A stretch of DNA of 64,000 nt from Ruminococcus sp. (GCA_017410265.1 JAFQRC010000010.1:27679-91678); one strand, 5' to 3'; positions 33,559-56,470 are shown, counted from the stretch's first letter. The notes: generated by a model not told the origin, from the sequence alone. Made by a program: numbers and translations.

Positions 33559-33636
33559 AACCTTGTCCTCTCTTTCGTGGTTTGAGAATCATTTTATTTT
33601 GCTATTATATTTTACTATAAAAGATATTGAAATCTC

Positions 33637-33660
33637 AACGGCTATAAGCACTAAACTTTT
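33637..33660. promoter_or_regulatory. 24-bp conserved site upstream of amylase 1
   Basis: AACGGCTATAAGCACTAAACTTTT, 23/24 identical to 36299-36322, abutting the -35 element. Confidence 0.7.
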
Positions 33661-36219: not shown

Positions 36220-36298
36220 TCTCTCCTAAAGTTGAATAAGGTGAAAACCAATATTTTTCATTATGCTACTATTCTACAACACCGCCACCTCAAAAAAC

Positions 36299-36322
36299 AA
36301 CGGATATAAGCACTAAACTTTT
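36299..36322. promoter_or_regulatory. 24-bp conserved site upstream of amylase 2
   Basis: AACGGATATAAGCACTAAACTTTT abutting TTGTTT-18-TAGAAT. Confidence 0.7.
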
Positions 36323-45670: not shown

Positions 45671-46251
45671 AATTTTTCTTTTTTGCCGAACTCTATCATC
45701 TTGTCGATGATGCCCTGGCACAAAACATGGTAGCTATGGACAGCGTCGACAGAAAGATGGTCAAACACTCCTAGCGCATCAAGAGTCGCAAAGCCGTGTG
45801 TAATAACTCGCATAGCGACATACAAATGGTCCATTGTAGCTTTATCTTCGATTCCATATATTTTAAGAATCATATAAATCGGCGCAGTAAATATCTCACG
45901 CGACTGAGCAAACTCAGGGTCATAAATCATATCTTCATCAATCATAAGATAGTAAAGATGCCTATGCTCCTTCAAAAACACTCTGAACGCATCTGCGGAT
46001 TTCAGAGTGACTTCTTCCAAAGGAACTCCTTTTACATACTCCTCGACATGGTCCACATACGCCTTGGCAGCAAGCTTTGCTACCTCTAAAAGAATATCAT
46101 GTTCATTTTTTATATGATTGTACAAGGAAGACGCCTGACAACCCAAGTTAGCAGCCAATGAACGCACAGAAAATTTATCCAGTCCATCTTCGTCAACCAT
46201 CCCAAAAGCAGTTGATATAATCAGTTCTCTTGATAAAGCTTTCTTAGCCAT
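45667..46251 (-). CDS. TetR/AcrR family transcriptional regulator
   Basis: GLDKFSVRSLAANLGCQASSLYNHIKN HTH; C-terminal THGFATL; start ATG 46251; promoter TTGACA-17-TAAACT at 46315-46343. Confidence 0.92.
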   Translation of the reverse strand: MAKKALSRELIISTAFGMVDEDGLDKFSVRSLAANLGCQASSLYNHIKNEHDILLEVAKLAAKAYVDHVEEYVKGVPLEEVTLKSADAFRVFLKEHRHLYYLMIDEDMIYDPEFAQSREIFTAPIYMILKIYGIEDKATMDHLYVAMRVITHGFATLDALGVFDHLSVDAVHSYHVLCQGIIDKMIEFGKKEKL

Positions 46252-46386
46252 TAAATCACCACGAATCTGTTGCTGTTTCAAGACACAGCAACGCATTTAT
46301 TAGATACTATATGTAGTTTAGAACCTACAGCGACCATTGTCAATAATTACCTGTATTTTTCTTAGAAATCACAACTGTTTTCATAC

Positions 46387-46415
46387 AAAAAGCGGGAGCG
46401 TACGGCCCCCGCTTT
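46387..46415 (-). terminator. Intrinsic terminator of CotH gene 1
   Basis: AAAGCGGGAGC-GTACG-GCCCCCGCTTT. Confidence 0.8.
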
Positions 46416-46430
46416 AGTGCGTTTATTAAT

Positions 46431-49400
46431 TTAGACTCCGTTTGCTAAGTAAACCTGAACATTTGTTGCATCCATAATAGATGTTGTTGAGTCAAGGTCA
46501 AAGTCAGAAAGAGCAGTTGCAGTATCTGAAAGCTCTGTCTTTCCAACCAGTGCAAGCTGGATAGTTGTTGAGTCTAATACAGAAACTGTGTTGTCCTCAT
46601 CAGCATCACCCATCTTGTAGATAACACCGTTGAGTGATGTTGTAGCAACGCCAGCATCTGTAGCCTCGTTGTAAACCATATGAGTTGAAGACTTAGTAAA
46701 GTTTCTTACATACTCATCTGCTTCTGTGAGGTCTACTACAACAGAACCGCTGTTCATATTATCTACAGCGAAGTAGTATTCTTTTTCAGATACTACGCTG
46801 GAGATTGTTGTAGTTGCACGCATTGAGTAATCGTTTGTGAACAAGAGTGTAGCGCCTTCACCTTCTTTAACGCTTACAGTAGCCTCATACCAGTAGTACT
46901 GCTGAGTACCTGTCTTATTCTTACCGATAGCGTCGCCACTCTGAGTCATAGTGCACTCTGTGCCGTTTACTGTAACTTTTGGTACATAACGTGAAGAACT
47001 GGATGACTTGAACTTAACTGTGAAGTTAACATCAGGAGCGATGTATCCGTACTCAAATTCCTGTGTATCTGATTTACCTGTAACAGAAGGATCAGCAGTT
47101 GGGAATACTACGATGTAGATTTCGCTCTTTGCACCTTCTTCAAGAGTAACAGCAGCTTCATCTGCAAATGTGAATGTTTTGTACGCATTACCGTCTACAT
47201 AAACTGTGAAGCTTACATCAGCACCGTCAAGTGCCACACCGTCAAGAGTAACAGTAGCAGATGGTTTGATAGAAACCACAGCGTCACTCTGAGATGCTGT
47301 GAATGTTACATCCTCTACGGTATATGAAACTAAAAGTTCCTCGTTGTAGAGGCCACCGCCAGTTGAACTACTCATGTAGTTACGACGGGTCTTGAGCCAG
47401 TCGTTTAAGTAGTAGACAGTGTTAGCGTAGCACTTAGAAGCACTGCCCGATGTACCTGTGTTACCTACCATGAAGTCACATGAGTATGGTTCGTAGTCAG
47501 AAGTAACCTTTGTACCCCAATCATCACCAGTGAAAGTATATGAACCCCAGCGAGCGTTGTTCATATCTACAGCTGATTCAAACGCAGGCATCCAAGTGTC
47601 GATGATGACACCCTCGTCATTTTCATCGTCTTTGATGTAATTGAAGAGCAGACCGGACATCTGGTTAGTCCAGATACGCTGACACTCTGTCCAGAACGCG
47701 TCGTTGTGTGCAAGCTTAGCCTGGAGGTTATAGTTGCTTTCTTTTGTATAGTCATCAGAGTCAGTTTGCAAAGCCTTTTGCTTAACAAACATCTGTGTAT
47801 TAGGACTGGACATGTTAACACTGTTTTCAACAGAAGAACCGTTGTAGATAAACTTGAGGTCCTTAGCGTAAGCACCGAATGCCCAGTCGTAGTCCCATAC
47901 AGGACCTGCAACGAGAATACTCTCACCGTTTCTGAACTCGTTGTGGATATAGTAAGATGTTGCACAAGAGTCTAGGTTCATAGAAAGCTCCTGAATGAGG
48001 TACATCTTAGCAAATGACTCAACGTCGATAAGCTGACCGATTTCGTTGAGGTCTTCCTCACCGCTTGCGTAAACAGCCTGCTCCATAGTAGCGTACTGAG
48101 TAATAATCCATTTCATTTCTTCCTGTGTAGCAAACTCAGGATATTTAACAACTACTGCCTGACCCTTAGGGGTTACAAACCATGAAGCCTCAGCCTCGTA
48201 TCTGTTAAAGAGCTCGTGCTCGAGGAGATAGTTGTACTCAGTATCAAAGTCTTCAGGTGAATTGAAAGGAAGGTCGTTAACAGCTGCAACAACATTACCG
48301 TTTTCATCTTTATATTCAGGACGATCGTATGTAGCGTAGTATTTATAATTATATGTCTGACCGCCTACTGTCATAGTAGTTTCAGTACCATCGTCAAGGT
48401 CATCTGTATCGAACTCATAGAGGAATTCTTCGTCATCAGGGTCAGTGCCAGGAACGAAAACAGAGTTAGCGAGCACATTACCGTCGTCGAGGTTGTTCAT
48501 ATCATTCATAAGTGTTGATCCGCCGTACTCGACCTTTTCTGTGATTACATAAGCACCGAGGTACTTACCGTTATCATATGCGTCAACGAGGAGAGTCTCA
48601 GGACCATAGCTAAGACCTAAGTCATCAGCGAGCTGATATGCAAAGGTGTTACGCATCATTGAGTGGTCAACGTTGTTAGCAAGTAAGCACCACTTCTTTG
48701 ATTCTGTTGAACCTTCGATAAGGTCATCTTTCTTGTCGAGGTTGAAGTTGTAGGCATACTTACCATAGATTCTCATAGAAGCCTCAAACGAAGAGTTACC
48801 TCTACCCTTGATCTTCTTGAGTGTTGTTCCGCCTGATTTATTGTTTACAAGATCACCGTTTGGCTTAAAGAGATAAATTGAACCCTTTGTTTCAATTGCG
48901 TCCTTATAGACACCGTTGTAGTTAGTTGATGTTATACCACTGCCACTTGGCCAAGCGTTTGAGCCCTGAAGACCTGCTGTTGTGCCTGTGAAGAGCTCTT
49001 CTTTAGTGGTCATAAGCAGGGCAGATGTGCCTGTTGTCTGGTAAATATTAATGTCTGGCTTATTTGTAATTGTAGAGCCGTCTTTGAACCAGAATGTTTT
49101 TGTTCCTGTTGAAAGGTTAGCTTTGCTACCGCTTGCATATTCAGTACCGCCGATAACAACCTTTTCGTGGTCTGTATATACTGTAACATTAGACAAATCT
49201 ACATAAGATGGAACGAAGAGGTCAAAAGTAGTACCGTTGTAGTATACTTTTACAGCATGCTCTGGGTTACCCTCGCCCTTTGTATCAATCCAAAGGTCGT
49301 CCCAGAAGTTTTCTATATCATCAGGGTCAGCAGCGTTTACTGTAGAAGCTGCCTGCCATGAGCCTGCGCCAGTATTTGTAGCCTTGTAAACAGTGTTAGT

Positions 49401-50495
49401 ATCACGATTTGATGCTGTCCAAGTGCCCCAGTTACAGCTGGTAACATTAGTTTCATCTACGTAATAAGAAGCACGATAGAAGGTGTAGGAAGTGTTGGCT
49501 GCAACTTCTGCAGTCCACATAACATGACCGCCAACTGTGTCGACAGTTTCGTCCATCTTGACAATCTCGTTGCCGTCGTTAATGAAAATATTAGCATCGT
49601 CAGAATATAAGTGCCAACTTGCATAATCTAAAAAGCTGATTACAACTTTCTGTGATGGGTCAACAGGATCATCAGGGTCAGTAGAAGACGAGTAATCCGT
49701 AAGCTGGTTGTGGTATGTTCCACCCCATTCAAACACGATAAGGATTTTTCCATCTGTGATTGCTTGTGTTGGACTACCATAGTTGGAATCAACATATGTC
49801 TGGTAGTTAGTAGCCTCTACCGGAATATCAGCTTTGTAAACATTGAAAGTCTGAGCTGCATTATTCCAATAAGATGAGCCTACTGCATGACTGACAGTAT
49901 CACCTGTTGAAGTAAGGGTAACATAACCGTCAAGACCATCATTGTTATAATAATGAATCTGTTTATCACTTGCATTATTCAAGTATGAAATAACACCAAC
50001 ATAAACAGTCTTCTTTTCACCTGAAAGAGGTGTGTACGATGACCATGTGCCATCACCATTACTCCAAGCGCCCTCTGAAACTGTGTAGAGGTTTTGGGAA
50101 CCGTCCCATGTAAGGTCATTTGTCTGATCCCATTTGTTGTTCCAGTCGTTTGTAGCATTTGCACCATTCATACGACACCAGATGATGTTAGCGTGTGATT
50201 CGCCGGAGCTAACAGTAATACTGTATATACCATCGCCGTCGCCATCAGAAGCTGAATACCACTTAGCTGCACTTGAGCCGTTACACAAGTAAGCCGCAAA
50301 ACGAGCGCCATCTGCTTTCCAGTTGTTGTTTGGCTTCAAGTATAAAGTGGTACCGCCAGTAATAGTCGCACCTGTCTGAGCTACGTCAGTTTCGGCAGCA
50401 GCAGTGTTTATGAAGGCTACTGTGCACATAGATACGAGCATGATGAGTGCGAGTATCATAGAAACTGTGGATTTGCAAAATCTGATTGTTTTCAT
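46431..50495 (-). CDS. Secreted CotH-family kinase 1 with three N-terminal CBM-like modules and a C-terminal dockerin
   Basis: Signal peptide; KIKGRGNSS, KKWCLLAN, MMRN, YLGAYVITEKVE, ELSMNLD and GPVWDYDWAFG; dockerin GDADEDNTVSVLDSTTIQL...SDFDLDSTTSIMDATNVQV. Confidence 0.88.
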   Translation of the reverse strand: MKTIRFCKSTVSMILALIMLVSMCTVAFINTAAAETDVAQTGATITGGTTLYLKPNNNWKADGARFAAYLCNGSSAAKWYSASDGDGDGIYSITVSSGESHANIIWCRMNGANATNDWNNKWDQTNDLTWDGSQNLYTVSEGAWSNGDGTWSSYTPLSGEKKTVYVGVISYLNNASDKQIHYYNNDGLDGYVTLTSTGDTVSHAVGSSYWNNAAQTFNVYKADIPVEATNYQTYVDSNYGSPTQAITDGKILIVFEWGGTYHNQLTDYSSSTDPDDPVDPSQKVVISFLDYASWHLYSDDANIFINDGNEIVKMDETVDTVGGHVMWTAEVAANTSYTFYRASYYVDETNVTSCNWGTWTASNRDTNTVYKATNTGAGSWQAASTVNAADPDDIENFWDDLWIDTKGEGNPEHAVKVYYNGTTFDLFVPSYVDLSNVTVYTDHEKVVIGGTEYASGSKANLSTGTKTFWFKDGSTITNKPDINIYQTTGTSALLMTTKEELFTGTTAGLQGSNAWPSGSGITSTNYNGVYKDAIETKGSIYLFKPNGDLVNNKSGGTTLKKIKGRGNSSFEASMRIYGKYAYNFNLDKKDDLIEGSTESKKWCLLANNVDHSMMRNTFAYQLADDLGLSYGPETLLVDAYDNGKYLGAYVITEKVEYGGSTLMNDMNNLDDGNVLANSVFVPGTDPDDEEFLYEFDTDDLDDGTETTMTVGGQTYNYKYYATYDRPEYKDENGNVVAAVNDLPFNSPEDFDTEYNYLLEHELFNRYEAEASWFVTPKGQAVVVKYPEFATQEEMKWIITQYATMEQAVYASGEEDLNEIGQLIDVESFAKMYLIQELSMNLDSCATSYYIHNEFRNGESILVAGPVWDYDWAFGAYAKDLKFIYNGSSVENSVNMSSPNTQMFVKQKALQTDSDDYTKESNYNLQAKLAHNDAFWTECQRIWTNQMSGLLFNYIKDDENDEGVIIDTWMPAFESAVDMNNARWGSYTFTGDDWGTKVTSDYEPYSCDFMVGNTGTSGSASKCYANTVYYLNDWLKTRRNYMSSSTGGGLYNEELLVSYTVEDVTFTASQSDAVVSIKPSATVTLDGVALDGADVSFTVYVDGNAYKTFTFADEAAVTLEEGAKSEIYIVVFPTADPSVTGKSDTQEFEYGYIAPDVNFTVKFKSSSSSRYVPKVTVNGTECTMTQSGDAIGKNKTGTQQYYWYEATVSVKEGEGATLLFTNDYSMRATTTISSVVSEKEYYFAVDNMNSGSVVVDLTEADEYVRNFTKSSTHMVYNEATDAGVATTSLNGVIYKMGDADEDNTVSVLDSTTIQLALVGKTELSDTATALSDFDLDSTTSIMDATNVQVYLANGV

Positions 50496-50497
50496 TA

Positions 50498-50687
50498 TAT
50501 CTCCTCCTACGAAGTATAAAATACGGGTTGAAATCGCTCATTATTAAACGAACAGCGTTCGTTTCCCTAAAAAGCATATATGCCCCGCAAGCTAAGACTC
50601 ACAAGGGCAGGTAATATCACTTTTTCGATTTAACAAATGAGCATTTCATAAGATATTTCAGGTTACACCAACCCAATATCTATTATC
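50498..50687 (-). ncRNA. Candidate structured 5' leader RNA, copy A
   Basis: Between TTGACT-17-TATAAT (50694-50722) and the SD; four stems equivalent to those in copy B. Confidence 0.55.
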
Positions 50688-50822
50688 GGTTACATTATAC
50701 CAAATAGCTATTTTTTAGTCAATAGATTTGTTAAATTTATCTATATTCGCCTATCTAGCGCATAGCTCATAATATCTGCACTACTGCTTGTGGTTTTTGG
50801 TGTTGCACCGCTGTTTTGACAC

Positions 50823-50851
50823 AAAAAAGCGGGAGCTGTACAGCCCCCGCC
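50823..50851 (-). terminator. Intrinsic terminator of CotH gene 2
   Basis: AAAGCGGGAGC-TGTACA-GCCCCCGCCT; flank duplicated from 46387-46440. Confidence 0.8.
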
Positions 50852-50868
50852 TAAGTGCGTTTATTAAT

Positions 50869-53800
50869 TTAAACTCCGCTTGCTAAGTAAATCTGGATAT
50901 CTGTTGCATCCATGATAGATGTTACTAAATCAAGATTGAAATCAGAAAGGTCAGTTGCAGTGTCAGAAAGCACCGTCTTTCCAACCAGTGCAAGCTGGAT
51001 AGTTGTTGCGTCAAGAATTGATACTTCGCCGTCCTCGTCAACATCACCCATTTTGTAGATAGCACCATTGATAACTGTTGTAGCAACACCTGATACTTCA
51101 GGGTCGTTAGTAATCATATTTGCTTCTGACTTAGTAAAGTTTCTTACATACTCCTTCGCATCTGTAAGCTCAACAGCCACTGTGCCGTCGTTTAAGTTAT
51201 CAACACCGAAGTAGTATGCTTTGCCTGCTTCTACTGCTGAGATTTCAGCACCTGCGCTCATTGCTAAAGCATTTGTGAACAAGAGTGTCGCACTCTCGCC
51301 TTTCTTAACGCTAACTGTAGCCTCATACCAGTAGTATGACTGTGTGCCGGTTTCGTTTGTGCCGATAATATCCCCGCTCTGAGTCATTACATACTCTGTG
51401 CCGTTTACAGTAACGGTAGGTACATAGCGGTAAGCGTCCGTTGCTTTGAACATAACTGTGAATTCGACATCAGGGATATACTCAAATTCCTGAACGTCTG
51501 ATGTATCTGTAACAGAAGTATCAGCTGTCGGGAATACCACGATGTAAATTTCGCTCTTTACACCCTCAGCGAGAGTAACAGTAGCGTTTGTTGTGAAGTC
51601 GTATGTGCCAACAGCCTCACCGTCCACATAAACTGTGTAGCTTACTTCTTCACCGCTTAATGCTGTGTCATTGAGAGTAACTGTAGCAGATGGTGTGATG
51701 GTAACCTCAGCGTCACTCAAAACTGCTGTGAAAGAAGCATCTGATACAGCATATTTTTTCAGAAGCTCTGCGTTGTAAAGATTACCGCCGTTTTTGTCGC
51801 TCATGTAGTTTCTACGCATCTTGAGCCAGTCGTTTAAGTAGTAGACAGTGTTAGCGTAGCACTTAGAAGCACTGCCCGATGTGCCTGTGTTACCTCTGCT
51901 GAAGGAATATGAGTAAGGTGTATAGTCAGAAGTAACCTTTGTACCCCAGTTATCGCCAGTGAATGTGTATGAACCCCAACGAGCATCGTTCATATCAACA
52001 GATGACTGAAACTTTGGCAACCATTCATCAATAATGATACCCTGGTCATTTGCATCGTCTTTGATGTAATTGAAGAGCAACTCTGCCATCTGGTTAGTCC
52101 AGATGCGCTGACACTCTGTCCAGAATAAAGAGTTCTGTGCAAGCTTAGCCTGGAGGTTGTAATTAGCAGATTTTGTGTTGTCACCGGTGTCTGTCTTAAG
52201 AGCCTTTTGTTTTACGAACATCTGCTCATAGTTAGACATATTTGCGCTATCAGTAACAGATGAGCCGTTGTAGATGAACTTTGTGCCACCTGCGTAAGCG
52301 CCGAATGCCCAGTCATAGTCCCATACAGGGCCTGCTACAAGAATGCTCTTTCCATCTCTGAACTCGTTGTGGATATAGTAAGATGTTGCGCAGGAGTCAA
52401 GGTTGATTGAAAGCTCCTGAATGAGGTACATCTTAGCAAAAGAATCTACATCAATAAGCTGTGAATATGTAGCATAGTCGTTGTTATAAACAGCCTGCTC
52501 CATAGTTGCGTACTGTGTGATAATCCATTCCATTTCTGCCTGTGTAGCAAACTCAGGATATTTAACAACTACTGCCTGACCCTTTGGAGTTACGAACCAA
52601 GAAGCCTCAGCCTCGTATCTGTTAAAGAGCTCGTGCTCGAGGAGATAGTTGTACTCAGTATCAAAGTTTTCAGGTGAATTGAAAGGAAGGTTAGATGCAG
52701 CCTCTACTAATACTTCACCTGTTTCTTCGTTAGTAACCTCAGGTCTGTCATATGTAGCGTAATACTTGTACTTATATGTCTGACCATTAACTTTGAAGTC
52801 GTTTTTAACGATACCGTCATCGAGGTCGTCTGTATCAAACTCATAGAGGAATTGTTCGTCATCAGGGTCAGTGCCAGGAACGAAAACAGAGTTAGCGAGC
52901 ACATTACCATCGTCGAGGTTTTCCATATCGTCCATAAGTGTTGATCCGCCGTACTCAACCTTTTCTGTGATAACAAAAGCGCCGAGGTACTTACCGTTAT
53001 CATAAGCGTCGACAAGTCGTGTTTCAGGACTATAGCTGAGTCCTAAGTCATCAGCGAGCTGATAAACAAAGGTGTTACGCATCATTGAGTGGTCAACGTT
53101 GTTAGCAAGTAAGCACCACTTCTTTGACTTCTCTGCGCCATCGATAAGGGCAACCTTCTTATCAAGGTTGAAGTTGTAAGCATACTTACCGTAAATTCTC
53201 ATAGAAGCCTCAAAGGATGAGTTACCTCTACCCTTAATCTTCTTTAAGACTTGTTTTTCTGCAGTATCTGTAATAAGCTCGCCATCTTCACTATACATGA
53301 AGATAGAACCCTTTGTTTCAATAGCGTCTTTGTAAACACCATTGTAGTTAGTTGATGTAATACCACTGCCACTTGGCCATGCGTTTGAGTTCATAAGACC
53401 AGCTGTTGTGCCTGTAAAGAGCTCTTCTTTAGTGGTCATCATAAGAGCTGCTGTTGACTTTGTCTGGTAAATAGTGATGTTACCCTTGTTAGTAGTTGTA
53501 GAGCCGTCTTTGAAAGCGAAAGTCTTTGTACCTGTTGAAAGGTTAGCTTTGCTACCGCTTGCGTACTCTGTGCCACCGATAACAACCTTTTCGTGGTCTG
53601 AGTAAACTGTTACATCTGAAAGGTTTACATAAGATGGAACATAAAGGTGGAATGTTGAGCCTGTGTAGTAAACCTTGATTGCCAGTTTTGTGTTGCCATC
53701 CCCTGTTGTATCAATCCAGAGATCATCCCAGAAGTTTTCTATATCATCAGGGTCAGCAGCGTTTACTGTAGACGAAGCAGCCCACGAACCAATACCGCTG

Positions 53801-54594
53801 TCTGTAGCCTTGTAAACAGTGTTAGAACCGCGGGAAGAAGCAGTCCAGCTGTTCCAATAGCCACTTGATGCATTAGACTCATCGAAGTAGTAAGATGTAC
53901 GATAGAAGGTATATGATGAACGAGCCGAAACCTCCGCTGTCCACATTGCATGACCTGACTTAGTATCAACTGTTTCATCCATCTGGGTAACTGTTGAACC
54001 TGACTTGATGAACATCTTAGCGTCATCTGATGCTACCCATTTTGTATCAGAATTTATAAGGAAGCTGATAGTAACTTTTTCAGCAGGGTCATCAGGATCT
54101 TCTGACGGGTCAGTTGTGCCACCTGATGGTGTGTAAGATGACCATGTGCCACCACCATTACTCCAAGCGCCCTCTGAAACTGTGTAGAGGTTTTTGGAAC
54201 CGTCCCATGTAAGGTCATTTGTCTGGTTCCATCTGTTGTTCCAGTCGTTGGTAGTATTACCACCATTCATACGACACCAGATGATGTTAGCATGTGATTC
54301 ACCGGAATTGACGGTTACCCAGTAATAGCCGTCATCGTTTGGACCATATGCCGAATACCAGTGAGCAGAACTGGAGCCGTTACAGAAATATGCCGCAAAG
54401 CGAGCTCCGTCTTTTTTCCAGTTTTCATTCGGTGACAGATAAAAAGTTGTGCCACCTGTGATAGTCGCGCCGGTATCTGCTACGTCAACCTCTGCAGCAG
54501 CAGTGTTTAGGAAGGCTACCGTGCACATAGATACGAGCATAATCAGTGCGAGTATCATAGAAACTGTGGATTTGCAGAATCTTTTCGTTTTCAT
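50869..54594 (-). CDS. Secreted CotH-family kinase 2 with two N-terminal CBM-like modules and a C-terminal dockerin
   Basis: Paralog of 46431-50495 with the same kinase motifs; lacks the second module; dockerin GDVDEDGEVSILDATTIQL. Confidence 0.88.
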   Translation of the reverse strand: MKTKRFCKSTVSMILALIMLVSMCTVAFLNTAAAEVDVADTGATITGGTTFYLSPNENWKKDGARFAAYFCNGSSSAHWYSAYGPNDDGYYWVTVNSGESHANIIWCRMNGGNTTNDWNNRWNQTNDLTWDGSKNLYTVSEGAWSNGGGTWSSYTPSGGTTDPSEDPDDPAEKVTISFLINSDTKWVASDDAKMFIKSGSTVTQMDETVDTKSGHAMWTAEVSARSSYTFYRTSYYFDESNASSGYWNSWTASSRGSNTVYKATDSGIGSWAASSTVNAADPDDIENFWDDLWIDTTGDGNTKLAIKVYYTGSTFHLYVPSYVNLSDVTVYSDHEKVVIGGTEYASGSKANLSTGTKTFAFKDGSTTTNKGNITIYQTKSTAALMMTTKEELFTGTTAGLMNSNAWPSGSGITSTNYNGVYKDAIETKGSIFMYSEDGELITDTAEKQVLKKIKGRGNSSFEASMRIYGKYAYNFNLDKKVALIDGAEKSKKWCLLANNVDHSMMRNTFVYQLADDLGLSYSPETRLVDAYDNGKYLGAFVITEKVEYGGSTLMDDMENLDDGNVLANSVFVPGTDPDDEQFLYEFDTDDLDDGIVKNDFKVNGQTYKYKYYATYDRPEVTNEETGEVLVEAASNLPFNSPENFDTEYNYLLEHELFNRYEAEASWFVTPKGQAVVVKYPEFATQAEMEWIITQYATMEQAVYNNDYATYSQLIDVDSFAKMYLIQELSINLDSCATSYYIHNEFRDGKSILVAGPVWDYDWAFGAYAGGTKFIYNGSSVTDSANMSNYEQMFVKQKALKTDTGDNTKSANYNLQAKLAQNSLFWTECQRIWTNQMAELLFNYIKDDANDQGIIIDEWLPKFQSSVDMNDARWGSYTFTGDNWGTKVTSDYTPYSYSFSRGNTGTSGSASKCYANTVYYLNDWLKMRRNYMSDKNGGNLYNAELLKKYAVSDASFTAVLSDAEVTITPSATVTLNDTALSGEEVSYTVYVDGEAVGTYDFTTNATVTLAEGVKSEIYIVVFPTADTSVTDTSDVQEFEYIPDVEFTVMFKATDAYRYVPTVTVNGTEYVMTQSGDIIGTNETGTQSYYWYEATVSVKKGESATLLFTNALAMSAGAEISAVEAGKAYYFGVDNLNDGTVAVELTDAKEYVRNFTKSEANMITNDPEVSGVATTVINGAIYKMGDVDEDGEVSILDATTIQLALVGKTVLSDTATDLSDFNLDLVTSIMDATDIQIYLASGV

Positions 54595-54596
54595 TA

Positions 54597-54780
54597 TATC
54601 TCCTCCTACGAGTATAAATTACAGTCTAAAATGCCCGATCGCTAAACAAAGAGCGTTCATTTTGATGAAAGCACCTACCCGTGCGTATTTCACACAGGTG
54701 AAAAATATGTCGTTTCTTTCACAAACAAAAGAGCATTTTGTACTAGTGATACAGGTTACCCAAACCATATATCTATTCAA
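54597..54780 (-). ncRNA. Candidate structured 5' leader RNA, copy B
   Basis: Between TTGACT-17-TATAAT (54786-54814) and the SD; stems covary with copy A. Confidence 0.55.
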
Positions 54781-54942
54781 AGTAAATTATACCAACCTGT
54801 AAAACCCCAGTCAATATAATTTACGAATATATTCAGCCTCTTTTTTGTGCTGATAAATTACTCACTGTAACTAAAGGTCAGAAAACCTTGCACTGTGACG
54901 ATAATAAAAACGGGTGCACCGTACTGATGCACCCGAAATATT

Positions 54943-55776
54943 TTATTTTACTGACAAATTATCCTCAATCTCATTTGCAGCATTTTCAAAGTAATCGCCG
55001 ACAAACAGCTCGATTGAGCCTGTGTCAACGCATTTTGCGAGCGATTTATCCATCGGAACCTTTGCGAGCACCTTTGTAGAAAACTTTTCTGCAATTTCAT
55101 CAATGTGGCTTTCCCCGAAAATCTTGTGCTGAGTGTTGCACTTTTTGCATAAGAAGTAGCTCATATTCTCAACCACACCGAGCACAGGAACATTCATCAT
55201 ATCCGCCATCTTCACAGCCTTTTCAACTATCATCGAAACAAGCTCCTGCGGAGATGTAACAACCACGATACCGTCAAGCGGAAGTGACTGGAAAACGGTC
55301 AGCGGAACATCGCCTGTTCCCGGAGGCATATCAACAAACATGTAGTCAACATCTTTCCAGATAACATCGCTCCAGAACTGCTTTACTGTACCCGCGATTA
55401 CAGGACCACGCCATACAACAGGGTCGGTTTCGTTTTCTAAAAGCAGGTTAACGGACATAACATCGATGCCTGTTTTAGTGGTGCGCGGTAAGATTCCGAA
55501 CTCGTTGCCGAGTGCTCTCTCTTTGATACCGAAAGCCTTCGGGATTGACGGACCTGTGATATCAGCGTCAAGCACAGCTGTCTTATAGCCTCTGCGGTTG
55601 AGCTCTACAGCCAAAGCAGATGTGACTAGACTCTTGCCAACTCCTCCTTTACCCGACACGATGCCGATAACCTTTTTAACTTTACTCAGAGCGTTTAATT
55701 TCTCGATTAAATCCTGTGGCGCGGTGCGCTCTGCACAGCTTTCACCACAGTTTGAACAATCATGTGTACAACCCAT
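54943..55776 (-). CDS. Mrp/NBP35 (ApbC) Fe-S cluster carrier ATPase
   Basis: N-terminal CxxxCxxCxxxC, SGKGGVGKS, DADITGPS, DMPPGTGD and ENMS..C..C motifs. Confidence 0.94.
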   Translation of the reverse strand: MGCTHDCSNCGESCAERTAPQDLIEKLNALSKVKKVIGIVSGKGGVGKSLVTSALAVELNRRGYKTAVLDADITGPSIPKAFGIKERALGNEFGILPRTTKTGIDVMSVNLLLENETDPVVWRGPVIAGTVKQFWSDVIWKDVDYMFVDMPPGTGDVPLTVFQSLPLDGIVVVTSPQELVSMIVEKAVKMADMMNVPVLGVVENMSYFLCKKCNTQHKIFGESHIDEIAEKFSTKVLAKVPMDKSLAKCVDTGSIELFVGDYFENAANEIEDNLSVK

Positions 55777-55885
55777 TTTTATACCTTCCTTCAGGGGTTT
55801 CCCCGTCTATATTCGAAAATTCAGGGACGAACCGCAGTCCGTCCCATAATAATAACCTAGTACTAATATACGCAGAAAATCAAAA

Positions 55886-56470
55886 TTATTCAGCGTCTGT
55901 AGCTACATCCTCTGCGCCGTCGAGTGCGCTGAGCTCTGCAACATCTTCATCAGTTGCAACCTCGTCATTGATTTCAACAGCTTCAACTGTTTCTTCGGTT
56001 TCAGCTTCTTCTAACTGAGCAAGCTCCTGAGCTAAACCGCCCTCTACCATAGCTTCTTTGATAGCTTCTTCGTCGATTTCTTCCTTGATTTCAAAGCCTG
56101 AAAGGAAGGTGTACGGGATACCGTAGCCGAGTGCAACACACGCGAAAGTCATAACTGTAGGCTGAGTAGCAAGTGCGTTGTGAAGCGGGAACGCAGGAGC
56201 TAAAGTCGCAATAATGATGAAAAGAGCAGGAATATCAAGAACACAGAGCACGATAGGAGAAAAACGCTTTACAGGAACGCCTTCGCCAACTCTGGTTGCG
56301 TAGAAAACAATAAGACCAAACAGGATGAAAACCACAACAGAAATGAGGTTTCCTACACCTGCTGAAACCTTGCTTGTCAGCGTCATAAAGAAGTATGTGC
56401 AAATAATGAATCCGATTACTAAAAATGATGAGAAAAATAAATTGAGCTTTTCTCTGCTTTCTTTTTTCAT
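55886..56470 (-). CDS. Membrane protein (4 TM) with acidic C-terminal tail, hypothetical
   Basis: Hydrophobic N-terminal ~125 aa followed by an E/D-rich tail. Confidence 0.75.
   Translation of the reverse strand: MKKESREKLNLFFSSFLVIGFIICTYFFMTLTSKVSAGVGNLISVVVFILFGLIVFYATRVGEGVPVKRFSPIVLCVLDIPALFIIIATLAPAFPLHNALATQPTVMTFACVALGYGIPYTFLSGFEIKEEIDEEAIKEAMVEGGLAQELAQLEEAETEETVEAVEINDEVATDEDVAELSALDGAEDVATDAE

Follow-up and report, generated by a model that had tools for sequence, protein, structure and literature searches.

Structured leaders of two CotH genes in Ruminococcus sp. and an apparently undescribed GGUCAG-loop leader RNA family

The 5′ stabilizer leaders of Firmicutes are found on the mRNAs of abundant secreted proteins, and they have neither a terminator nor a ligand-sensing platform. 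Meanwhile, cyclic di-GMP (c-di-GMP) riboswitches precede surface and adhesin genes in Clostridia. In this study, we analyzed a 64,000-nucleotide (nt) stretch of DNA from Ruminococcus sp. (GCA_017410265.1 JAFQRC010000010.1:27679-91678), hereafter the window, in which two genes for large secreted CotH proteins (CotH-A and CotH-B) each follow a structured 5′ untranslated region (5′ UTR), leader A and leader B. Like the stabilizers of aprE (B. subtilis), ermC, and cryIIIA (STAB-SD, B. thuringiensis), these leaders combine a predicted 5′-proximal stem-loop with a very strong Shine-Dalgarno sequence (SD). In addition, the layout proposed for them resembles that of the three-way-junction riboswitches (purine, thiamine pyrophosphate, and c-di-GMP-I), with a closing helix P1 and two hairpin arms in a 5′ UTR.

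Our results indicate that the two leaders are very probably paralogous 5′ UTRs of a promoter–leader–signal-peptide cassette. In the Ruminococcus bromii group (titled Ruminococcus and Acutalibacteraceae at NCBI), this cassette serves genes for large secreted proteins. They appear to be ordinary-to-degenerate members of an interesting family of three-way-junction leader RNAs with a GGUCAG loop. This family is apparently confined to the genus and new to the literature, in which our searches found no description of the GGUCAG leader motif.

The GGUCAG leader family and its relation to the CotH leaders

The family leaders of the relatives are 165-450 nt long, and they have a common promoter and a 5′ start of the type TGGTATAATGTTAGCGTGAAUAAUUGUUGGGUAAGUAUGCCC. 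The fold predicted for them has P1 as a long closing helix, then a three-way junction with a variable helix P2 and a hairpin P3. The loop of P3 ends in the invariant GGUCAG, and an A-rich linker comes after the hairpin. P1 is often lengthened, with a 5′-terminal segment of the GGGUAAGU type pairing with a downstream segment. For instance, the minimum free energy (MFE) fold of the leaders most closely related to those of the window joins the 5′ GGGUAAGU to a ACUUACUC further downstream, giving a long closing helix, and L035, L036, and L061 show the same long closing pairing with different sequences. The short forms have a core consensus of ~55 nt, which runs P1, C, P2 (GAA..UUC with a variable apex), P3 (ACCG NN GGUCAG N CGGU), AAAA, and P1′. 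A minimal member of the L025 type (~55 nt) reads UCGAC-C-GAAUUUGUAUAAAAUUC-ACUGUUGGUCAGGCAGU-AAAA-GUUGA.

The stems of P3 are diverse (CCG/CGG, CCGG/CCGG, CACUUUG/CAAAGUG, CAUAG/CUAUG, CUCGG/UCGGG, CUUUCG/CGAGAG, ACUGU/GCAGU, and GCAGC/GCUGC). When 23 distinct sequences were aligned with MAFFT, the pairs of P3 were 70.8% paired, compared with 58.4% in shuffles and 30-48% in slid controls. The covariation score of P3 in these sequences was 0.318 against 0.152 in shuffles, and 0 of 500 shuffles scored as high. Furthermore, unconstrained MFE folding placed P3 in a three-way junction in five of nine independent lineages, and the closing helix started again 0-7 nt downstream of P3. When P3 was held fixed, the junction appeared in 0-7% of the shuffles, and from these rates we estimate a binomial probability of the order of 1e-6. 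P1 was also cognate-specific. With the A-run downstream of P3 as an anchor independent of pairing, the next 6 nt formed 5.38 pairs with the upstream region of their own leader and 4.68 pairs with those of other leaders (permutation p = 5e-5). An RNAduplex energy test for the long-range helix is underpowered in such A/U-rich leaders, and the junction-recurrence and 6-mer tests were used instead. RNAalifold on the MAFFT alignment of the relatives recovered only P3; MAFFT misaligns the P1 5′ strands, and the cross-group alignments of P1 and P2 were structure-guided. In the relatives, an invariant loop on covarying stems suggests that a trans factor recognizes the hairpin or that the loop makes a tertiary contact.

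We considered a pseudoknot between the GGUCAG loop and a CUGACC partner and rejected it; the partner is present in some leaders (e.g., L122 and L064) and absent from the short group-1 leaders. In addition, GC-rich hairpin mini-elements, such as GGGAGCUGUCAGCGAAGCUGACUGAGGGAG and CCUCCC..GGGAGG, recur in the P2 apices of L063-L067, in the upstream regions of L023 and L041, and at ~1120-1220 of L071 (G000:C4:18000-18100). They look like small insertions tolerated at the tip of P2, and some of them have CUGAUGAG beside a GAAA-capped hairpin.

To describe the distribution of the family, we used R1, a covariance model of P3 and its flanks, whose E-values are rough. At E ≤ 0.1, R1 matched in 158 of the 222 genomes of the genus. 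A locus was called true if it stood upstream of an SD and an ATG opening a signal-peptide protein. By this context, 29 of the top 30 and 14 of the next 20 loci were true (43 of the best 50), with the GGUCAG hairpin 68-168 nt before the ATG of the signal-peptide gene. The R1 matches in other genera of the taxonomic family lie in coding sequence and look false, and thus the motif is apparently confined to the genus. An exact-pattern scan gave as carriers Ruminococcus intestinalis NSJ-71, Ruminococcus sp. YE282, Eubacterium sp. OM08-24, and metagenome-assembled genomes of Ruminococcus and Acutalibacteraceae. The downstream products include CotH proteins and CBM26, X25, and CBM48-like starch-binding proteins, and the CotH motif KKIKGRGNS.W is visible in many of them. 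The N-terminal domain or signal peptide of the CotH products is common to genes in 146 of 201 genomes of the genus, and many of these genes have leaders of 165-450 nt.

The loci L062, L109, and L060 have nearly the same signal peptide (MKT.R.CK.TVSMIL..IMLVSMCTVA) and leader as the window (50400-50495 and 54500-54594). The mature N-termini that follow this near-identical signal peptide differ, being CBM-like (TTVYFQNNWKW..) in L062 and L109 and made of other domains in L060. Given such varied downstream partners, the promoter, the leader, and the signal peptide seem to form a cassette that is shuffled between genes. Meanwhile, L073-L076 (G186, G158, G092, and G045) encode products that look by eye like TrmB-type tRNA methyltransferases. 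They have the TTTGATATAATGATACGGTAAATAAC..GGTATGCC promoter and the first ~35 nt as in the family, and their leaders are short and have no junction. Rather than a part of the RNA fold, the conserved 5′ start may represent a generic element of the promoter or of the initially transcribed region.

The CotH leaders are connected to this family by their 5′ halves and by their genes. In BLAST searches, the 5′ module of the group-1 leaders occurred in one copy per genome in ~13 close relatives, and in the genome of the window (G000) it matched G000:C4:18382 (E = 1e-13) and, weakly, leader A (E = 1.5e-5). The alignment of leaders A and B, the G000:C4 leader, and the group-1 leaders is colinear over the -35 box, the 5′ start, the P1 5′ strand (..UGCUCAUUUGUU vs ..UUGCAGUUGUU), and the P2 5′ strand (AAAAAG). 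In addition, GCUUUUUAGG is common to leader A (in its P2 region) and G000:C4, and it stands directly 5′ of P3 in both. The nearest CotH orthologues, in G025 and G125 (N-termini 79-83% identical), carry a GGUCAG leader. Thus, the window leaders retain the promoter type, the 5′ start (AAUAGAUAU..GGGUU), the 5′ strands of P1 and P2, and the P2 3′ strand (GCUUUUUAGG), and like the family, which includes those of CotH orthologues, they precede signal-peptide genes. Leader A also has the same overall P1-P2-P3 layout, and its P3 occupies the position of the GGUCAG hairpin in the relatives.

However, the two window leaders differ from the family in several respects. The GGUCAG hairpin is replaced by AAAYGAACGCUSUUYGUUU, with the loops CGCUG in leader A and CGCUC in leader B. 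The A-rich linker (UAAAA) from P3 to P1 is not kept (AAU or absent in A, AGCGAUC in B), P3 is unstable in B, and the 5′ GGGUU forms a local hairpin, P0, instead of a clear long-range closing helix. The window P3 loop lies ~60 nt from the ATG, compared with 68-168 nt in family members. With its filters off, R1 found no match on either leader transcript and only 4.6 bits on promoter A (E = 10); its best matches in the window region are in coding sequence with ≤11.8 bits, against 22-39 bits for true members. Judged from their sequences, the window leaders would be derived members of the family that lost the hallmark loop. The replacement is found in both tandem paralogues and hence most likely arose before the CotH genes were duplicated. 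A putative flip of P1 (UUUUUGC to GAAAUGC) between the relatives and the window was dropped; MAFFT aligns the strands in another register.

The only GGUCAG-type leader of the genome is located at G000:C4:18382-18843 (L071:1501-1962). It has a group-1-like promoter and 5′ module, is ~420 nt long, and includes the P3 CACUUUG-gGGUCAGg-CAAAGUG at ~C4:18673-18694. The ATG at C4:18841 opens a secreted protein with an N-terminus unlike those of the CotH genes. In addition, a 16-nt exact copy of leader A P3 (AAACGAACGCTGTTCG) is found at G000:C4:18308-18323 (L071:1427-1442), 73 nt upstream of the -35 box of the C4 promoter. The pattern CGAAC-N3-GTTCG occurs at only two sites in the 1.97-Mb genome, namely leader A and this copy (E = 1e-4 within the 1.2-kb region). 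Recombination between cassettes, an upstream promoter, or a binding site common to both loci, in DNA or RNA, could possibly account for this copy.

Structure of leaders A and B

CotH-A and CotH-B are separate transcription units with the order terminator, promoter, ~190-nt leader, SD AGGAGGAG, and ATG. The features of the two units and of their leaders are as follows.

46431..50495, minus strand: CotH-A gene, 1354 amino acids (aa), signal peptide and CotH domain (Pfam)
50869..54594, minus strand: CotH-B gene, 1241 aa, signal peptide, CotH domain and dockerin (Pfam)
50827..50852, minus strand: intrinsic terminator of CotH-B, 5′ of promoter A, 11-bp stem with 7 G-C pairs, then a T-run
50694..50722, minus strand: promoter A, TTGACT at 50717-50722, 17-nt spacer, TGG-TATAAT at 50694-50699, colinear with the relatives' promoters
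54911..54935, minus strand: intrinsic terminator 5′ of promoter B, from the terminator search
54786..54814, minus strand: promoter B, TTGACT at 54809-54814, 17-nt spacer, TGG-TATAAT at 54786-54791
50652..50680, minus strand: leader A P0, outer stem GAUAU/AUAUC (ensemble probability 0.88), inner stem GGUU/AACC
50636..50647, minus strand: leader A P1 5′ strand GAAAUGCUCAUU, probability ~1.0, helix lengthened by GUUAA:UUAAU pairing
50530..50542, minus strand: leader A P1 3′ strand AAUGAGCGAUUUC, in the MFE and ensemble folds
50569..50625, minus strand: leader A P2, AAAAAG (50620-50625):CUUUUU (50569-50574), probability ~0.8
50575-50611, minus strand: leader A GC-rich cap hairpin of P2, predicted fold
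50546..50564, minus strand: leader A P3, AAACGAA-CGCUG-UUCGUUU, probability ~0.8, isolated hairpin -6.0 kcal/mol
50495..50519, minus strand: leader A SD hairpin, UUAUACUUC:GGAG-A-UAUAA, -4.4 kcal/mol
50501-50508, minus strand: leader A SD AGGAGGAG, with the ATG at 50493-50495
54748..54773, minus strand: leader B P0, GAUA/UAUC and GGUU/AACC, ensemble probability 0.65
54731..54739, minus strand: leader B P1 5′ strand AAAAUGCUC, probability 0.65
54628..54636, minus strand: leader B P1 3′ strand GGGCAUUUU, in the MFE and ensemble folds
54667..54720, minus strand: leader B P2, GAAAG (54716-54720):CUUUC (54667-54671), probability 0.38
54672-54700, minus strand: leader B GC-rich cap hairpin of P2, in the MFE fold
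54644..54662, minus strand: leader B homologue of P3, AAAUGAA-CGCUC-UUUGUUU, not predicted to fold
54594..54617, minus strand: leader B SD hairpin, -3.5 kcal/mol, SD AGGAGGAG at 54600-54607, ATG at 54592-54594

The original prediction, made from the sequence of the window, had placed TTGACT-17-TATAAT promoters ~190 nt before both CotH start codons and had described the leaders as conserved, covarying RNAs with four stems and no U-tailed terminator. The promoters were indeed found at 50722..50694 and 54814..54786. Both have a TG-extended -10 box (TGnTATAAT) and 11 of 12 consensus matches, and the -10 box of promoter A predicts a transcription start site (TSS) at ~50686-50688. The terminator search found no terminator-like site within leader A or leader B, and neither leader includes an open reading frame (ORF). 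Long, structured, non-coding leaders on independent transcription units are thus well founded, given the terminators, the promoters, and the ORF-free ~190 nt.

The claim of four stems kept in both leaders stood in part. P0, P1, P2, and the GC-rich P2 caps can form in both, and the caps differ in sequence between the copies as described (identity of P2 with its cap, 0.41). However, P3 folds in A and not in B. The unconstrained MFE fold of leader A consists of exactly P0 and the P1-P2-P3 three-way junction. In leader B, P3 (AAAUGAA/UUUGUUU) has only A-U and G.U pairs, with an ensemble probability of ~0 and an isolated hairpin of 0.0 kcal/mol, so that a wobble-compensated P3 stem conserved in both copies was not borne out. 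The full structure proposed for leader B, including the P3 junction, lies 4.9 kcal/mol above the MFE. The folding z-scores of -2.2 (A) and -2.9 (B) are modest only, and the three-way junction also appeared in 18 of 200 shuffles (9%) of leader A.

Among the 30 base pairs compared between A and B, 24 are identical, three have one-sided changes to G.U, and three have two-sided changes; two of these last three fall in the A/U-rich P2 and depend on the structure-guided register. The identity between the leaders varied by block. It was 0.64 at the 5′ end with P0 (core ~0.8) and 0.73 in the 5′ strand of P1, fell to 0.41 in P2 and its cap, and reached 0.74 in P3 together with its 5′ linker (sliding-window peak 0.87). 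In the 3′ strand of P1 it was 0.50, and in the SD it was 1.0. RNAalifold on a MAFFT alignment of the two leaders gave a weak, different consensus, in which MAFFT misaligned the P1 5′ strands. The proposed covariation between the leaders is therefore thin, with 3/30 two-sided changes and an overall identity not above that of fourfold degenerate sites. The stems exist, yet the two copies by themselves are no proof of a structure that is conserved and covaries.

More copies would be needed for a larger alignment. BLAST found no further window-type leader in the same genome or in the 222 genomes of the genus, and a search with the P3 pattern in the genome and metagenome contig collections gave unrelated chance matches and no window-type copy. 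Because no further copy turned up in any collection searched, a larger alignment of the window variant cannot be built. An Rfam 15 scan of 46000-56000 of the window (both strands, E ≤ 10) found nothing on the leader stems; its sole matches were four chance eukaryotic small nucleolar or small nuclear RNAs in flanking or coding sequence, far below threshold. The Rfam 15 scan of the loci of ten relatives (E ≤ 1) likewise found nothing on the leaders. The view that the CotH leaders fit no known class agrees with these scans.

Both leaders also include an SD hairpin that was absent from the original prediction, UUAUAC(U)UC:GGAG-A-UAUAA, which holds the SD half in the loop and half in the stem. A comparable SD hairpin (UAUUUCC/GGAGAUA) is predicted in the group-1 relatives. 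As candidate leader peptides, we considered the minus-strand mini-ORFs MLIC* (A, 50630-50644) and MLFCL* (B, 54719-54736) and rejected them; they have no SD and are not found in relatives. Both overlap the P1 5′ strand and are probably untranslated. The amylase genes of the window have short leaders, unlike the CotH genes. Both of them (minus strand) have a box of ~23 nt, AAGTTTAGTGCTTATA(G/T)CCGTTG, at 33636-33660 and 36298-36320, ~70-95 nt 5′ of the start codons. This box is distinct from the CotH leaders and may be a common promoter or regulator site.

Possible functions of the leaders

A riboswitch, a protein-binding leader, and a stability element had all been suggested originally. A stability or translation element fits the window leaders best and factor binding fits the GGUCAG relatives best, and the riboswitch is disfavored. 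We tentatively propose that the window leaders are most likely constitutive cis-acting stability or translation leaders derived from the GGUCAG family. The 5′-proximal P0 and the closed P1-P2(-P3) domain would shield the 3.7-4.1 kb mRNAs from 5′-end-dependent decay, and they would keep the long untranslated stretch structured. Meanwhile, the SD of 8 nt, which lies ~20 nt downstream of the domain within a weak hairpin of its own, would provide strong initiation. A constitutive role is suggested because the leaders have no terminator, no SD helix that competes with P1, and no invariant core, and because the 5′ stabilizers offer a precedent. From the sequences, we infer that factor binding may have been lost in the window leaders.

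Several points weigh against this proposal. First, the TSS is only predicted, and a start further downstream would leave P0 and P1 outside the RNA. Second, P0 begins ~6 nt from the predicted 5′ end, and classic 5′ stabilizers, as known from the work on aprE and ermC, usually tolerate a shorter 5′ overhang than this. Third, the leader identity is 0.61, compared with 0.66 at the fourfold degenerate sites of CotH-A and CotH-B. Because of this, the pair has no overall sign of purifying selection, and the helices may drift and not be selected. Finally, the better-kept blocks (P0, the P1 5′ strand, and P3) could equally reflect a binding site.

The last point leads to a different explanation, which we regard as unlikely. 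A trans-acting protein or small RNA would bind the AAAYGAACGCUS hairpin or sequence as a site of changed specificity, and the CotH genes would have their own post-transcriptional control. P3 with its flanks is the best-kept internal block (0.74-0.87 against 0.61 overall), the invariant loop on covarying stems in the relatives implies a trans factor or tertiary contact, and the 16-nt identical copy adjoins the only other family leader of the genome. However, the P3 identity (18/21 between A and B) has p ~ 0.03 before correction for ~9 windows, P3 is unfolded in leader B, and there are three copies in the genome and none in the other genomes and metagenomes searched.

The lack of a selection signal, in turn, would fit a neutral relic, in which nothing matters except the promoter, the SD region, and possibly the 5′ hairpin, and P1-P2-P3 has been decaying since the recognition hairpin was lost. 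The junction in leader A shuffles, the collapse of P3 in leader B, and the wholly replaced P2 cap agree with such decay. Nevertheless, we consider it improbable. P1 is present in both copies with one two-sided and one G.U change and a high ensemble probability, and both copies retained the ~190-nt length despite heavy indel turnover.

A riboswitch, in which the three-way junction binds a small molecule and controls the translation or stability of the CotH mRNAs, is very unlikely. The junction with its closing P1, the compact ~55-nt core of the family short forms with invariant loop and junction nucleotides, and the lack of an Rfam match (it would be a new class) speak for it. In contrast, the window leaders hold no invariant core nucleotide, neither the GGUCAG loop nor the A-rich linker from P3 to P1, and P3 is unstable in leader B. 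There is no terminator in the leaders and no SD-sequestering helix mutually exclusive with P1; the sole pairing of the SD is the local hairpin of 3.5-4.4 kcal/mol, which does not overlap P1. Furthermore, the downstream genes encode secreted structural or enzymatic proteins and not transporters or biosynthetic enzymes.

A DNA operator, with a transcription factor bound to the P3 inverted repeat AAACGAAC-GCT-GTTCGTTT (as a roadblock at ~+130 in the CotH genes and an upstream site at ~-75 of the G000:C4 promoter), could explain why CGAAC-N3-GTTCG is limited to leader A and to a site upstream of the sole GGUCAG-type leader gene (73 nt before its -35 box). However, it can hardly be correct, given that the symmetry of the DNA is broken at two positions in copy B, the arms of the C4 copy measure only 5 bp, the distances between sites and promoters differ greatly, and no regulator was identified.

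For the GGUCAG family itself, the signal recognition particle (SRP) provides a further lead. The SRP RNA of the same genome (L142, G000:C9:239151-239331, minus strand) matches RF01854 with 62.3 bits. The 5′ strand of its domain IV, CAUGUCAGGCGG-GGAA, has 9 nt (GUCAGGCGG) identical with the L059-type P3 AGGUCAGGCGG, and every carrier gene encodes a signal-peptide protein. On this resemblance, the GGUCAG leader might be a trans-factor-responsive RNA whose loop mimics the domain IV 5′ strand and recruits or titrates Ffh, an idea that we rate as extremely improbable. If it were true, Ffh recruitment would couple the translation of giant signal-peptide proteins to secretion, the leader would mark the mRNAs of secreted amylosome-associated proteins, and the CotH leaders would be natural loss-of-loop variants.

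The amylosome genes and the genes for starch adherence are dispersed in R. bromii and its relatives. For the question of how they are controlled, the GGUCAG leader offers a testable handle, with a ~55-nt core, an invariant GGUCAG loop, and natural loss-of-loop variants in the window. The main value of the CotH leaders lies in their use as built-in negative controls and in the evidence they give for cassette shuffling.

Comparison with known systems

The targets of protein-dependent antitermination (RAT, recognized by BglG/LicT, and the dual hairpins of ANTAR) and the processive-antitermination RNAs EAR and put resemble the leaders of the window and the family in that a hairpin with a sequence-specific loop stands in the leaders of carbohydrate-utilization genes, with long genes downstream. 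However, the window leaders differ from RAT and ANTAR sites; they have a single hairpin and not a tandem hexaloop pair, no overlapping terminator, an unrelated loop sequence, and no Rfam match. From the three-way-junction riboswitches they are set apart by the lack of an Rfam match, of a conserved junction core, and of an expression platform. In the family, the P2 loop is freely variable, and thus a purine-type loop-loop tertiary contact is not expected. The 5′ stabilizers have no sequence similarity to the window leaders, and they are short, consisting of a 5′ hairpin or an SD-like site, whereas the window leaders add a putative three-way-junction domain of ~110 nt.

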